Shown here: piece after piece, positions 24,791 through 54,853 of the stretch
How positions within the stretch are numbered: the first letter of the stretch is position 1
Layout of the letters: the number at the start of each line of letters is the position of its first letter
Sequence record: OR062946.1
Reading direction: 5' to 3' (one strand)
Origin: Escherichia phage 310Ecol104PP
Length of the DNA stretch: 64,000 nt
Position numbers and translations under genes: made by a program
Notes under the pieces: generated by a model
The model's database searches: none
Seen by the model: the letters and a program-made list of their open reading frames with translations, nothing else
What the model was told of the DNA's origin: nothing

Positions 24791-24905
24791 ATTTTACCCT
24801 TAATTGATTAACCAAGCATTGATAAGCACTAAACTATACTGCGAATAAAATTCTGGACCAAAATGAAAAATCATATCATTTATAGTATCCATAATGTAAT
24901 TCAAT

Positions 24906-25376
24906 TTAATCATGTTTCCACACCCCATCGGTATTTGACCAAAGCCGCTGATTATCTGATCCTCGCCACAGCTTTTTAGTCGGAAGATTTTTCTCATACT
25001 TCCCATCAATAATAACATCAACATATTTAAGCATTTCTAGTTGTTTAATATCTTCAAACTTATATCCTGTCCACAACCAAATGCTTTTATTGGGATAAAG
25101 ATTTTTTACTGTTTGAACAATGCAATGAATAACATCTCGGTTATCAGGATAGAGAGGGTCTCCTCCAGTTATAGTTAATCCTTCTATATAATCATTATTC
25201 AAACATTCAATTAATTGTTCTAGTGTTTCACCAGTGAATGGAATACCATTTCTAGCATTCCATGTTGATTTATTATAACACCCTTCACACTTATGCAAAC
25301 AACCTGTAACGAAAAGAACGACCCTGCAACCAGGGCCATTCACAAAATCGCAAGGATAAAATCTATCATAATTCAT
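24906..25376 (-). CDS. nrdG: anaerobic ribonucleotide reductase activating protein NrdG
   Basis: 156 aa; radical-SAM Cys cluster CLHKCEGCYN. Confidence 0.9.
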   Translation of the reverse strand: MNYDRFYPCDFVNGPGCRVVLFVTGCLHKCEGCYNKSTWNARNGIPFTGETLEQLIECLNNDYIEGLTITGGDPLYPDNRDVIHCIVQTVKNLYPNKSIWLWTGYKFEDIKQLEMLKYVDVIIDGKYEKNLPTKKLWRGSDNQRLWSNTDGVWKHD

Positions 25377-27190
25377 TGGTGTTTAACCCTATGCATGATT
25401 TCTTTATTTTTACCGAGATTAAATCCGCGTTCGTTCGGATTTCCCAAATAACCGCATGTTCTTCTTATGGTATTCATCTTTTTAGGATCAGTTTCTCCAC
25501 AAATAGAACAAACAAATCCGTTTTCAGTAGGAGTCATTTCATGGGTACTTCCACATGTAAAACATTTATCTACTGGCATATTAACACCAAAATAATCTAA
25601 ATGTTGTGCAGCATAATCCCATACAGCCTCAAGACCCTTTAAGTTATTTTTCATATCAGGAAGTTCAACATAAGAAATGTGACCACCTGTCGCAATGAAA
25701 TGATATGGTGCTTCACGAGAAATCTTTTCAAACGGAGTGATATTTTCTTCTACTGAAACATGGAAACTATTAGTGTACCAGCCTTTATCAGTAACATCCT
25801 TTACACTTCCATATTTCTCAGTATCAAGTTTACAGAAGCGATAGCACAGGTTTTCAGCAGGAGTAGAATACAAGCTAAAAGCAAAACCGGTTCTTTCAGT
25901 CCACTGCTTAAGACGAGTATTCATTTTAGTTAAAATTTCCTGTCCAATATCACGACCGACAAGAATATTCAATTCGTGAATACCAATGTATCCTAGGGAC
26001 ACTGAACTTCTACCGTTTTTAAATAACTCAATTATGTCGTCATCAGGTTTAAGACGAACCCCGAATGCACCTTCTTGGTAAAGAATAGGAGCAACAGTCG
26101 CTTTAACTCCTTTTAAGGAACTAATTCTACACATCAAAGCTTCAAAACATAAATCCATTCGTTCATTGAATAATTCAACAAATTTCTGTTCATTGAACTG
26201 TGTTCCAATATAAGAATCTAACGCGATGCGAGGAAGATTCAGTGTTACAACACCAAGATTATTACGTCCATCAAGAATTTCATTGCCAGTCGAATCTTTC
26301 CATACGCTCAAGAAACTACGGCAACCCATTGGAGAAACAGGAACAGATGAACCAGTGATAGCTTTATTGTTCTTAGCTGAAATAATATCAGGATACATCC
26401 TTTTGCTTGCACACTCTAGAGCAAGCTGTTTAATATCATAGTTCGGATCGTCTTTATAAAGATTAACACCTTCTTCAACGAACATAACAAGCTTAGGGAA
26501 AATAGGAGTTATCCCATCACGACCAAGACCTTTAATACGATTTTTCAGAATTGCTTTCTGAATCATTCGTTCAGTCCAGTCAGTTCCCGTACCAAATGTA
26601 ATTGTTACAAAAGGAGTCTGTCCGTTTGAACTAAAGAGAGTATTTACTTCATATTCATAAGCTTGGAATGCATCGTATACGTCTTTTTCTGTTTTAGATT
26701 GAGCATAATTTAACGCATCAGCGATTTGCCATTTTTCTGCATCCTCAATATGTTTTGCATAGGTGCGTTTAACATAAGGAGAAAGTACTTTATCTACATT
26801 CGCAAAAGTCGTTCCGCCGTATTGGTGAGAAGCAACCTGTGCAGTAATTTGTGCCATAATTGCAGTAGCAACGCCAATTGATTTAGGAGTTTCAATCTGT
26901 GCATTACCAAGCTTAAATCCGTTTTCAAGCATTCCTTTTAAATCTACTAAACAGCAATTAGTAAATGGAAGAGCAGGGGAATAATCAATATCATGGAAAT
27001 GAATAATTCCGCTTTCATGCGCTTTCATAATAAAAGACGGGACCATATTTTTGGCAATGTGTTTAGACACAATACCAGCCATAAGGTCCCGTTGAGTTGG
27101 AAAAACACGAGAATCTTTATTAGCATTCTCGTTTAAAAGGTCTTTATTAGTTTTATGAATCAATCCTTCAATTTCTTTTTCAATTGTCAT
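25373..27190 (-). CDS. nrdD: anaerobic ribonucleoside-triphosphate reductase NrdD (uninterrupted)
   Basis: 605 aa single ORF; C-terminal glycyl-radical and Zn site CFTCGSTHEM...CSICGETD. Confidence 0.95.
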   Translation of the reverse strand: MTIEKEIEGLIHKTNKDLLNENANKDSRVFPTQRDLMAGIVSKHIAKNMVPSFIMKAHESGIIHFHDIDYSPALPFTNCCLVDLKGMLENGFKLGNAQIETPKSIGVATAIMAQITAQVASHQYGGTTFANVDKVLSPYVKRTYAKHIEDAEKWQIADALNYAQSKTEKDVYDAFQAYEYEVNTLFSSNGQTPFVTITFGTGTDWTERMIQKAILKNRIKGLGRDGITPIFPKLVMFVEEGVNLYKDDPNYDIKQLALECASKRMYPDIISAKNNKAITGSSVPVSPMGCRSFLSVWKDSTGNEILDGRNNLGVVTLNLPRIALDSYIGTQFNEQKFVELFNERMDLCFEALMCRISSLKGVKATVAPILYQEGAFGVRLKPDDDIIELFKNGRSSVSLGYIGIHELNILVGRDIGQEILTKMNTRLKQWTERTGFAFSLYSTPAENLCYRFCKLDTEKYGSVKDVTDKGWYTNSFHVSVEENITPFEKISREAPYHFIATGGHISYVELPDMKNNLKGLEAVWDYAAQHLDYFGVNMPVDKCFTCGSTHEMTPTENGFVCSICGETDPKKMNTIRRTCGYLGNPNERGFNLGKNKEIMHRVKHQ

Positions 27191-45125: not shown

Positions 45126-45391
45126 TAGTATTTTTCCTCTGGTTGGAACACAGCACGGCAAGCCCACATACTTGCTTCTTTGAGTTTCGTTTTAGCAATA
45201 GTTAACTGATCGAGGCTTTCGGCGTAATTCTTCGCGAGTTCATCATCTTCACAGCTATCAAATGCTTCCCAAAATTCATCGTATAAAGCGTCAAAGATAA
45301 GTCCTAAACGAACTTCAGCGTCTTTGATAGCATTCACTTTACCGATTTTCTCTTCAGTATGCGGCTTATAACCCTTAATATCTTCAATCAT
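45125..45391 (-). CDS. small acidic protein at T4 vs.4 position (candidate Acb2-type cyclic-oligonucleotide sponge)
   Basis: 88 aa; positional only (second gene upstream of regB). Confidence 0.45.
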
Positions 45392-45605
45392 ATTTTACTT
45401 CCTCACCAGTACCTAAATCATATTCAACTAAACGAATAGGTTCATGAATGCCATATCCCTGAACAGAAATTTCTGTCGTAGGATAAATTCCATCAATATC
45501 ACCCATATTCCATGCTTCATTAAATTGCTGTTCGCCTGAATTACTAAACCATTCGGCGAAAGCATTTAGCACATCTTCAGAACCTTCAATAATTATCTTT
45601 GCCAT
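45384..45605 (-). CDS. hypothetical protein, 73 aa
   Basis: ORF track. Confidence 0.5.
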   Translation of the reverse strand: MAKIIIEGSEDVLNAFAEWFSNSGEQQFNEAWNMGDIDGIYPTTEISVQGYGIHEPIRLVEYDLGTGEEVKYD

Positions 45606-45967
45606 TACAGACTCTCGGTAAAGGTACGAGCGATAACGTCGCGCTGCTGTTCCGGAGTCAGAGAGTTAAAGCGAACTGCATAACCGGATACACGGATGGT
45701 CAGCTGCGGATATTTTTCCGGATGCTTAACTGCATCTTCCAGAGTTTCACGACGCAGAACGTTTACGTTCAGGTGTTGACCACCTTCAATTTTAACTGTA
45801 GGTTGTGTTTCAATTTCAATTTCACGGGCATGTAAACCGTAGAAAATTTCTGGGTCTACAAAAGAGTCCTCTTTAAAGGTTTTAGAGACAATAATTCGTG
45901 CTTGAATACCGTCTTCAAAATAAATAGTACCTTTATGTGTGCCTTCAAGAATTTGATATGCTTTCAT
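45605..45967 (-). CDS. autonomous glycyl radical cofactor (GrcA/YfiD homolog)
   Basis: 120 aa; C-terminal [60 protein letters not shown] matches recalled E. coli GrcA. Confidence 0.85.
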
Positions 45968-45974
45968 ATAAACC

Positions 45975-46304
45975 TCAATTAGAAAATAAATTTATCCAAG
46001 ATTGTTCTTTAATTAAAAATGGCTCAGAATCATATGCCATTAAACTCTGTGTGATTAGTCCTTTAAAAGGCCCATCAATAAATTCCATGGTAAAATATGG
46101 AATTTTATTCATTAGCCGTGCATTAGGAGCAGTACATAAAACTCTGCATCCTTTGAATACACCTTTTTGTAATTTGTATTGCTTGGGATAAAATTCGCTC
46201 AAAATGTTGTTATTTGCCAAAATTTCAAAATGATTCACCAATTTATTTTTAATAGTTTTTGGCGAAAAATAAAGATATTCGAAAAGCTGTGTGTCTGTCA
46301 TCAT
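45975..46304 (-). CDS. hypothetical protein, about 109 aa
   Basis: likely start ATG 46304, ATGA overlap with upstream stop. Confidence 0.5.
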
Positions 46305-54024: not shown

Positions 54025-54101
<77 letters not shown>

Positions 54102-54105
54102 TATT

Positions 54106-54180
54106 TGGCGGACGTGATAGGATTCGAACCTATAACCAATCGCTTAACAGGCGATCGCTCTGCCATTGAGCTACACATCC
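54106..54180 (-). tRNA. tRNA-Asn (anticodon GUU)
   Basis: manual fold: acceptor GGATGTG/CACGTCC, D-arm GCTC-AATGGCA-GAGC, anticodon loop CTGTTAA, T-loop TTCGAAT, CCA encoded. Confidence 0.8.
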
Positions 54181-54184
54181 AAAT

Positions 54185-54271
54185 TGGTGGGGAGTGATGG
54201 AGTCGAACCACCCGAGTCGCAATGACAATGGATTTACAGTCCACACCGCTACCTCTACGGGATAACTCCCC
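54185..54271 (-). tRNA. tRNA-Tyr-like (anticodon GUA), long variable arm
   Basis: perfect acceptor GGGGAGT/ACTCCCC, anticodon loop CTGTAAA, variable stem GTC/GAC, T-loop TTCGACT, CCA; D-arm irregular. Confidence 0.6.
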
Positions 54272-54280
54272 AAATTAATT

Positions 54281-54355
54281 TGGTGGCCCTGGGTGGAATT
54301 GAACCACCATCTGGCGATTATGAGTCGCTTGCTTGAACCTTCCAGCTACAGGGCC
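54281..54355 (-). tRNA. tRNA with CAU anticodon (Ile-lysidine or Met; T4 tRNA-Ile position)
   Basis: acceptor GGCCCTG/CAGGGCC, anticodon loop CTCATAA, T-loop TTCAATT, CCA; 1 nt after tRNA-Thr. Confidence 0.85.
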
Positions 54356-54356
54356 T

Positions 54357-54432
54357 TGGTGCTGATTGACGGAATCGAACCGCCGACCTTCTCATTACAA
54401 GTGAGTTGCTCTACCTACTGAGCTAAATCAGC
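54357..54432 (-). tRNA. tRNA-Thr (anticodon UGU)
   Basis: acceptor GCTGATT/AATCAGC, anticodon loop CTTGTAA, T-loop TTCGATT, CCA encoded. Confidence 0.9.
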
Positions 54433-54437
54433 AAAAC

Positions 54438-54527
54438 TGGCGGAGGCGATAGGATTTGAACCTATGAGTCGCCGGAGCGACTGCCGGTTTTCAAGACCGG
54501 TGCATTAAACCACTCTGCCACGCCTCC
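54438..54527 (-). tRNA. tRNA-Ser (anticodon UGA), long variable arm
   Basis: acceptor GGAGGCG/CGCCTCC, anticodon stem CCGGT/ACCGG loop CTTGAAA, T-loop TTCAAAT, CCA. Confidence 0.9.
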
Positions 54528-54529
54528 AG

Positions 54530-54603
54530 TCTCCATACAAGGATTTGAACCTTGGACCTCCTGATCCCAAATCAGGCGCTCTACCAAACTGAGCTACACG
54601 GAG
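54530..54603 (-). tRNA. tRNA-Pro (anticodon UGG), CCA not encoded
   Basis: anticodon loop TTTGGGA, T-loop TTCAAAT; 3' end abuts tRNA-Ser (dimeric precursor as in T4). Confidence 0.88.
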
Positions 54604-54613
54604 TAAATTAAAT

Positions 54614-54687
<74 letters not shown>

Positions 54688-54692
54688 AAATT

Positions 54693-54779
54693 TGGTGCGA
54701 GAAGTGGGACTCGAACCCACAAGGAAATCATTCCGCAGCATTTTAAGTGCTGTGCCTTTACCAATTTGACCATTCTCGC
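54693..54779 (-). tRNA. tRNA-Leu (anticodon UAA), long variable arm
   Basis: acceptor GCGAGAA/TTCTCGC, anticodon loop CTTAAAA, T-loop TTCGAGT, CCA. Confidence 0.9.
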
Positions 54780-54780
54780 G

Positions 54781-54853
54781 CTGGGAATAAAGGACTCGAA
54801 CCTTTGCATCCTGGAATCAAAATCCAGTGCCTTACCAACTTGGCTAATTCCCA
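54781..54853 (-). tRNA. tRNA-Gln (anticodon UUG), CCA not encoded
   Basis: 5' UGGGAAU, anticodon loop TTTTGAT, T-loop TTCGAGT; 3' end abuts tRNA-Leu (dimeric precursor). Confidence 0.9.

Follow-up and report, generated by a model that had tools for sequence, protein, structure and literature searches.

GrcA (YfiD) of Escherichia coli and its bacteriophage T4 counterpart Y06I are ~14-kDa "spare part" proteins, described by Wagner et al. (2001) in work drawn on here as relayed in PMC8683613. According to that account, the PFL activating enzyme installs a glycyl radical in either protein, which in complex with O2-cleaved pyruvate formate-lyase (PFL) restores its activity in vitro. The two were the only validated spare parts when PMC8683613 appeared. 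In YfiD, residues 1–60 form a disordered part that matters for the binding of cleaved PFL, and residues 61–127 adopt the fold of PFL residues 693–759 (PMC8683613). The radical site of GrcA is G102, and the Gly102 radical abstracts hydrogen from Cys419 of PflB (PMC12338860). In phages, the gene vs.6 was present in T4 and in all five of the other T4-like genomes compared in 2006 (PMC1524935).

Y06I/vs.6 has thus counted as a textbook case of a spare part since 2001, and its annotation is routine. A phage GrcA of the kind found here is already known, being annotated as GrcA in hundreds of phage genomes, and the open reading frame (ORF) itself adds nothing. The only unexpected detail is that the half of the gene encoding the radical domain is a DNA copy of host grcA. 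No description of mosaicism or gene conversion in vs.6 was found in the searchable literature, which does not extend to Wagner et al. (2001) or the T4 genome review, and a claim of novelty is a weak one. Here we describe vs.6 in a 64,000 nucleotide stretch of DNA from Escherichia phage 310Ecol104PP (OR062946.1), referred to below as the window.

The vs.6 gene in the window

The ORF is intact, begins with ATG and encodes a protein of 120 amino acids. Its main features are as follows.

45605..45967, minus strand: vs.6 (phage grcA) ORF, 120 aa, stop codon included in the span (from the ORF list)
45674..45694, minus strand: RVSGYAV motif, aa 92–98 (from the translation)
45683..45685, minus strand: radical glycine Gly95, codon GGT (from the translation and alignment to 6OWR YfiD and PflB 697–759)
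45973..45976, minus strand: GAGG Shine-Dalgarno sequence, 5 nt upstream of the vs.6 ATG (read from the sequence)

In the alignment, Gly95 is the equivalent of GrcA Gly102 and PflB Gly734. The gene order vs.7-vs.6-vs.5 is common to phages W143, T4, Shfl2 and Mineola. In the window, the vs.6 Shine-Dalgarno GAGG overlaps the vs.7 stop codon (TGA, 45975..45977), and the vs.6 stop and vs.5 start share the sequence TAATG; overlaps of this sort are the tight packing typical of T-even phages. A scan for promoters and terminators between 44 and 49 kb of the window found sites no more numerous than in shuffled controls. The downstream gene vs.5 (45384..45605, minus strand), the neighbour of the converted tract described below, is variable among close relatives, encoding 73 amino acids in the window, W143 and Shfl2 and 58 in T4, where it is set apart from vs.4 by a 36-nt gap.

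Family membership and the T4 orthologue

The original prediction, made from the sequence alone, was that the C-terminal ~60 residues match E. coli GrcA and include the glycyl radical motif RVSGYAV. This is borne out: 61 of 61 residues are identical to GrcA 67–127 and the motif is present with Gly95, the glycine whose loss had been set beforehand as the sign against the assignment. Alignments with E. coli GrcA (BLASTP E=9e-53) and with the T4 homologue (118/120 aa), both proposed at the time as checks, were run and both match. At the DNA level, every one of the 5,426 complete E. coli genomes has a grcA that megablast matches to vs.6 (E=3e-84), a similarity far beyond chance.

Profile and structure searches agree on the family. 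The Pfam Gly_radical domain (PF01228) is found at aa 60–101 (E=2.2e-18); the best NCBIfam match is TIGR04365 spare_glycyl, the GrcA equivalog (E=1e-45); and the PDB matches include YfiD (6OWR, E=5e-42) and PflB 697–759 (E=5e-26). In these NCBIfam and PDB matches GrcA comes first, PflB second and other PFL-like enzymes thereafter. The TIGR04365 score of 154.6 bits falls below the equivalog cutoff of 170 (E. coli GrcA scores 233.9) and covers profile positions 25–126 only, because the N-terminal half has diverged. PHROG 1209 is matched over the full length of the protein (1–120, E=5e-63), and the PFL-type Gly_radical domain by which the GrcA family (TIGR04365, IPR011140) is defined is present. 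The protein is filed as a phage branch of the GrcA kind, sharing the GrcA function on the strength of experiments with the T4 orthologue but falling short of a strict equivalog when judged by sequence score.

The protein is built to stand alone, in that only its last 60–65 residues align to PflB and other glycyl radical enzymes, and they do so at the extreme C-termini of these enzymes. A full-length pyruvate formate-lyase (~760 aa, with an active-site Cys-Cys) is ruled out by the length of 120 aa and by the partial match to TIGR01255, which scores 89 bits against a cutoff of 994 and spans profile positions 680–744 only. Annotations as "pyruvate formate-lyase" in some phage records are over-calls.

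vs.6 DNA is 100% identical in Escherichia phages W143 and Pu-Krd-SF4 and 95–99% identical in ~480 further phage records, with 744 phage records covering at least 80% of the gene. W143 is classified as a Tequatrovirus; its vs.6 gene is annotated "autonomous glycyl radical cofactor" and the neighbours of that gene are those of the T4 regB-denV block. The window genome is likewise a Tequatrovirus. T4 vs.6 itself (NP_049730, annotated GrcA in RefSeq) has the same length as the window gene and is identical to it at 353 of 363 nucleotides, with two residues differing in the protein (T54P and R73H in T4). The window ORF is the orthologue of T4 vs.6, whose product is the protein named Y06I in the biochemical literature.

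Two other records show unusual arrangements of the gene. Salmonella phage Lv5cm (MZ150757.1) matches at two sites, each annotated as a glycyl radical cofactor, in what looks like a duplication, and in KMB39 (OR539219.1) the gene is found in two pieces over 418 bp, annotated as two vs.6 coding sequences, in what looks like a disruption.

The nrdG and nrdD genes

The window also encodes an anaerobic ribonucleotide reductase and its activase.

24906..25376, minus strand: nrdG (NrdD activase), 156 aa, in a 4-nt overlap with nrdD, mobC being absent from between the two (ORF list; BLASTN against T4)
25373..27190, minus strand: nrdD (class III ribonucleotide reductase), 605 aa uninterrupted, radical motif RRTCGYLG (ORF list; BLASTN against T4)

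The pair had been placed at 24906..27190, which is exactly right, and the suggestion that nrdD lacks the intron seen in T4 also stands: in the BLASTN comparison with T4, the ~1.03 kb I-TevII group I intron is missing, its place lying between window positions 26652 and 26655. The T4 homing endonuclease gene mobC, sited between nrdG and nrdD, is missing from the window too. The nrdG region (24800..25376) is 83% identical to T4 and the adjoining nrdD sequence (25356..26805) 96.7–99.3% identical, the drop in nrdG falling exactly at the site of mobC in T4. Recombination associated with the endonuclease, or marker exclusion, could have left this footprint.

GrcA had further been described as lying "alongside" NrdD and NrdG. 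Both are indeed encoded in the genome, but they lie 18 kb from vs.6, the radical domain of vs.6 is of the PFL type and not the NrdD type, and the link is only a thematic one. It is conceivable, with two glycyl-radical systems in one genome, that the vs.6 protein is a spare radical domain for phage NrdD, activated by phage NrdG. An early comparative study, with nothing but a Pfam hit to go on, speculated that the gene acts in nucleotide metabolism (PMC1524935), and spare parts for other glycyl radical enzymes have been considered conceivable (PMC8683613). We nevertheless regard this reading as highly improbable. The domain is identical to that of E. coli GrcA at all 61 positions and ~79% identical to PflB 697–759; no NrdD family or structure is found among the NCBIfam (E<=0.01) or PDB (E<=0.001) matches; the NrdD motif RRTCGYLG is of the RxCGY type, unlike RVSGYAV in vs.6; and vs.6 and nrdD sit in different gene blocks. 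T5-like phages, moreover, have a GrcA gene too. The expected partners of the vs.6 protein are host PflB and host PflA rather than phage NrdD and NrdG.

A mosaic within vs.6

Comparison with E. coli grcA divides vs.6 into three segments.

45790..45967, minus strand: phage-type 5′ half, aa 1–59, low GC; 82/178 nt (46%) identical to E. coli grcA, plus 21 gap columns
45618..45789, minus strand: host-identical tract, gene nt 179–350, aa 60–117; 172/172 nt identical to grcA of E. coli FDAARGOS_497
45605..45617, minus strand: last 13 nt of vs.6, with three synonymous differences from E. coli (nt 351, 354 and 357) in the alignment to grcA

The contrast in identity between the tract and the 5′ half is highly significant (Fisher p=1e-33) and is accompanied by a change in composition, from GC 0.33 and GC3 0.18 in the 5′ half to GC 0.51 and GC3 0.45 in the 3′ half; neighbouring phage genes have a GC content of 0.28–0.40. 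At its left boundary, the tract begins where the structured radical domain begins by the YfiD definition. The label "host-like" given to the gene at the outset is thus correct but understated, since the 3′ half of vs.6 is host DNA. Constraint on the protein does not explain the tract: phage Taquito has a radical domain identical to that of E. coli GrcA at 60 of 61 residues, yet only 36 of its 61 third-codon positions agree with E. coli, as against 58 of the 61 C-terminal codons in the window.

At the 3′ end the window reads ACCGAGAGTCTGTAA where E. coli has ACTGAAAGCCTGTAA. The GAGAG here may serve as a ribosome-binding site for vs.5, a candidate role read from the sequence. T4 and Shfl2 deviate from E. 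coli otherwise than the window does in these last 13 nucleotides: T4 agrees with E. coli at nt 351 and 354, where the window differs, so that the 3′ edge of the host-identical stretch is not shared.

When the 64-kb window was searched against 5,426 complete E. coli genomes by megablast, the grcA patch was matched in every genome, no other host-identical patch was found and the first 43 kb gave no match at all. Beyond the grcA patch, the matches listed include only a stretch of tRNA-Tyr, found on an E. coli record of 102 kb. That stretch (~54182..54274) is 90.5% identical to the record, from E. coli O111:H8, and lies in a cluster of ten tRNA genes (54025..54853, minus strand) for Arg, Asn, Tyr, Met(CAT), Thr, Ser, Pro, Gly, Leu and Gln. 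T4 has eight tRNA genes and is not known to carry tRNA-Asn or tRNA-Tyr.

The abruptness of the identity boundary, and nothing else, might suggest an artefact of chimeric assembly or of contamination with host DNA. This explanation is refuted, leaving it a negligible probability, because the same in-frame junction recurs in more than 630 phage genomes that were sequenced independently and come from a wide range of countries and hosts, T4, T2 and the RB phages included. In addition, the tract has phage sequence to either side, and the start of vs.5 overlaps its stop codon.

The two halves of the gene are probably not of unrelated origin. An hhalign comparison of ten phage with 67 bacterial GrcA N-terminal halves returned a probability of 91% (E=1e-6; 36% identity over 39 columns), aligning aa 22–60 with 28–67 and leaving the first 21 phage residues unaligned. 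Fusion of an unrelated phage domain to a host fragment is made unlikely by this probable homology and by the presence of the two-part gene in all phage lineages; we favour an old GrcA homologue bearing a recent host patch. Taken with its family membership, we are confident that vs.6 is the T-even Y06I, a stand-alone spare-part glycyl-radical protein of the GrcA/YfiD type, and that it comprises an old phage homologue in which the radical-domain half has recently been replaced from the host.

Donor and direction of transfer

The donor can be identified by comparing the 3′ 183 nt of the gene with host alleles. The window matches E. coli at 180 of 183 positions, another Escherichia species at 97.8%, Citrobacter at 91% and K. 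pneumoniae at 160 of 183; the E. coli and K. pneumoniae grcA genes differ from each other at 22 of the same 183 sites. T4 is also of the host type here (179/183 nt identical to E. coli), as is Shigella phage Shfl2 (182/183). The Klebsiella phage Mineola (Jiaodavirus) shows the reverse preference, with 169/183 matches to K. pneumoniae and only 155/183 to E. coli. Most of the Klebsiella-specific synonymous states are present in it, and at the position of LEDAVK in E. coli and T4 it has the Klebsiella-specific residues LLDAVE. A second phage of the Mineola type, represented by an IMG/VR contig (L123), shares 94.4% identity with K. pneumoniae, and the best of the other hosts reaches 88%. A Klebsiella-type tract in a Klebsiella phage requires at least two independent transfers.

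Bacterial grcA genes diverge to a similar extent in both halves, as expected of vertically inherited orthologues, and the phage match is limited to the 3′ halves, which together give the direction of transfer as host to phage. pflB was ruled out as the DNA donor: grcA is the best match in every E. coli genome, and pflB reaches only 83.5% with the Klebsiella phage query.

Three of the host records call for comment. CP125156.1 (L093), used for the host comparison, is a 5.37-Mb K. pneumoniae chromosome filed in PLSDB as "plasmid unnamed2"; grcA appears frameshifted in K. aerogenes NCTC10006 (LR134122.1, L094); and a "Vagococcus sp." contig (L032) that carries an enterobacterial grcA is probably contaminated or mislabelled.

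Probable repeated conversion in phages of E. coli

Among the E. coli phages, the two halves of vs.6 have different histories. Synonymous differences across ten genes of the Tequatrovirus/Mosigvirus type average 0.215 in the 5′ half, as against 0.066 in the tract. Between T4 and contig L103, 11.5 of 37 synonymous sites are different in the 5′ half, and in the tract 0 of 43 (p=3e-5); the L103 tract is the allele of E. coli RM11911 and the T4 tract is one site removed from it. The opposite pattern is seen between phage WFK and another of the genes (L102), whose 5′ halves are identical (0/37) and whose tracts differ at 6 of 43 sites. A polymorphism found in E. coli itself (GTA/GTT, at phage nt 204) is also divided among the phages, with A in the window and Shfl2 and T in T4 and WFK. 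The case for recurrence rests on ~40 synonymous sites per half, in ten E. coli-phage and two Klebsiella-phage genes.

Host-to-phage gene conversion of the radical domain has, on this sequence evidence, been recent and probably repeated. Part of the discordance could alternatively be explained by one recent acquisition that was then spread by phage–phage recombination. A different possibility is that the 3′ half of E. coli grcA was captured once, long ago, by the ancestor of Tequatrovirus and Mosigvirus and has been kept by constraint since, with no repeated conversion. The ~636 phage records that resemble the E. coli grcA 3′ end do form a continuous range of ~95–99.5% identity, and purifying selection on the domain is very strong in all the phages. 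Protein constraint alone, however, leaves third positions only ~50–60% identical in other phages, and a single capture would not account for 5′ halves that are 31–36% synonymously different attached to tracts that are the same as each other and as an E. coli allele, nor for phages with identical 5′ halves that differ at six tract sites. The Klebsiella-type tract of the Klebsiella phage, with the two or more independent transfers that it needs, also counts against it, and we consider a single capture unlikely.

The reading that we prefer, and to which we would give somewhat better than even chances, is that the radical-domain half of T-even grcA has been repeatedly overwritten by the grcA allele of the current host (E. 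coli in Tequatrovirus and Mosigvirus, K. pneumoniae in Jiaodavirus) through homologous recombination with host DNA. T-even phages break host DNA into pieces; their recombination system is highly active, and they are known to recombine with plasmids that carry homologous inserts. A fragment of host grcA would replace the radical-domain half of vs.6 by the same route, anchored in blocks that are near-identical to host grcA even in unconverted phage copies, such as GAAGGTGGTCAACACCT at the left edge of the tract and CAGCAGCGCGACGTTATCGC near its right edge. Blocks as long as these exist because the radical domain is so conserved.

If this is correct, concerted evolution links a gene in a strictly lytic phage to the corresponding host gene, the boundary of exchange is a protein domain boundary and the spare part is kept in exact fit to host PflB and PflA. 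A converted radical domain, being the same as that of the host, cannot fit host PflA and PflB worse than the ancestral phage version did. The host matching may either be selected or be merely neutral homogenisation; the exact match of the domain to host PflB/PflA suggests selection or a by-product of high sequence conservation.

GrcA homologues in other phages

PHROG 1209 includes members from Jiaodavirus, Slopekvirus, Karamvirus, Pseudotevenvirus, Krischvirus, T5-like phages (T5.056) and jumbo Yersinia phages. These homologues have the same small size and the same conserved radical domain as vs.6, and most of them have the same phage-type N-terminus (MKAYQ). Jiaodavirus has the K. pneumoniae-type tract in place of the E. 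coli type. No recent host tracking was found in Slopekvirus, Karamvirus, Pseudotevenvirus, Krischvirus, T5-like or jumbo phages, whose genes are 72–84% identical to the best of 85 sampled host grcA sequences (80 loci from one genome scan, together with K. pneumoniae and E. coli alleles). The host-identical tract is not a general rule among phages. Host-type residues do occur with only ~82–84% host DNA identity, in the form of Klebsiella-type LLDAVE in Slopekvirus (L084, L114, L115) and E. coli-type LEDAVK in Pseudotevenvirus (L086, L087, L109–L113), and these may be either older conversions that have since diverged or cases of convergent matching.

In phage T5 (T5.056, L088:320-688) and T5-like siphoviruses, the homologue is annotated as "acetyltransferase-related" or "pyruvate formate-lyase". 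It shares the MKAYQ N-terminus of the T4-like gene and adjoins tRNA genes, and its 3′ half is 72–75% identical to any host grcA. Two sets of candidates were set aside during this survey. An IMG/VR contig with 91% identity to Yersinia grcA (L126) was not counted, as it covers aa 24–120 only and is maybe a bacterial gene on a mis-binned contig, and L167–L177 were rejected as phage grcA, being the ends of host pflB genes.

Function of the vs.6 protein

It was proposed in the original prediction that a phage GrcA may repair oxygen-damaged glycyl radical enzymes during infection. This is the accepted function, known from the rescue of O2-cleaved PFL by T4 Y06I, from which the window allele differs at two residues. 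No in vivo phenotype of vs.6 or benefit to the phage was found in the searchable literature, and the in vivo benefit is one that we infer.

The setting would be the infection of a fermenting or micro-aerobic cell. Host PflA (PFL-AE, a radical SAM enzyme) would take hydrogen from Gly95 of the vs.6 protein, whose radical domain would dock into a host PflB molecule from which O2 has cut off the resident domain at Gly734. The radical would then be handed to PflB Cys419, letting pyruvate again be turned into acetyl-CoA plus formate and so keeping carbon and energy flowing for phage production. Cleaved PFL is bound by the disordered half of YfiD, and the phage-specific N-terminal half would be the counterpart of that half.

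Divergence in that N-terminal half invites another interpretation. As this is the part that governs binding to cleaved PFL in YfiD, its strong divergence in the phage could alter the timing or mode of binding, and the vs.6 protein might then act as a decoy or inhibitor, titrating PflA or occupying PflB to redirect fermentation. The radical glycine and the entire domain are the same as those of the host, which would be needless in an inhibitor, and T4 Y06I is reported, in the account of Wagner et al. (2001) given in PMC8683613, to restore PFL activity just as YfiD does. A decoy is accordingly very unlikely, and repair of host PFL remains our preferred function. A phage GrcA may be of value in the low-oxygen gut.

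Comparison with known systems

The closest relative outside the phages is E. coli GrcA/YfiD itself (P68066; 6OWR), which shares the two-part layout of N-terminal half and radical domain. In the radical domain (aa 60–120 against 67–127) the two proteins are the same, with 98.4% identity at the DNA level. The N-terminal half of the window protein is seven residues shorter than that of E. coli GrcA and so diverged (36% identity over 39 columns) that profile comparison is needed to detect a probable relationship, and vs.6, unlike E. coli grcA, is phage-encoded and translationally coupled to phage neighbours. The C-terminal radical domain of PflB (693–759) has the same fold and the RVSGYAV motif, at ~79% rather than 100% amino acid identity, and the vs.6 protein lacks the PflB catalytic barrel and Cys418/419. 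It is this portion of PflB for which the spare part substitutes.

As an instance of genetic exchange, vs.6 represents a clean and datable case of host-to-lytic-phage gene conversion that is limited to one domain and has occurred independently with two host genera. The tract also provides a natural assay of how often T-even phages recombine with the DNA of their hosts. The nearest parallel is found in the psbA and psbD genes of cyanophages, in which host–phage intragenic recombination was reportedly described by Zeidner and colleagues in 2005 and by Sullivan and colleagues in 2006. There too a host metabolic gene borne by a phage exchanges segments with the host copy, producing mosaic patches of host composition. 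The gene, the hosts and the phages are different, however, and in vs.6 the exchange corresponds to a single protein domain, with a donor that can be identified to species and allele.
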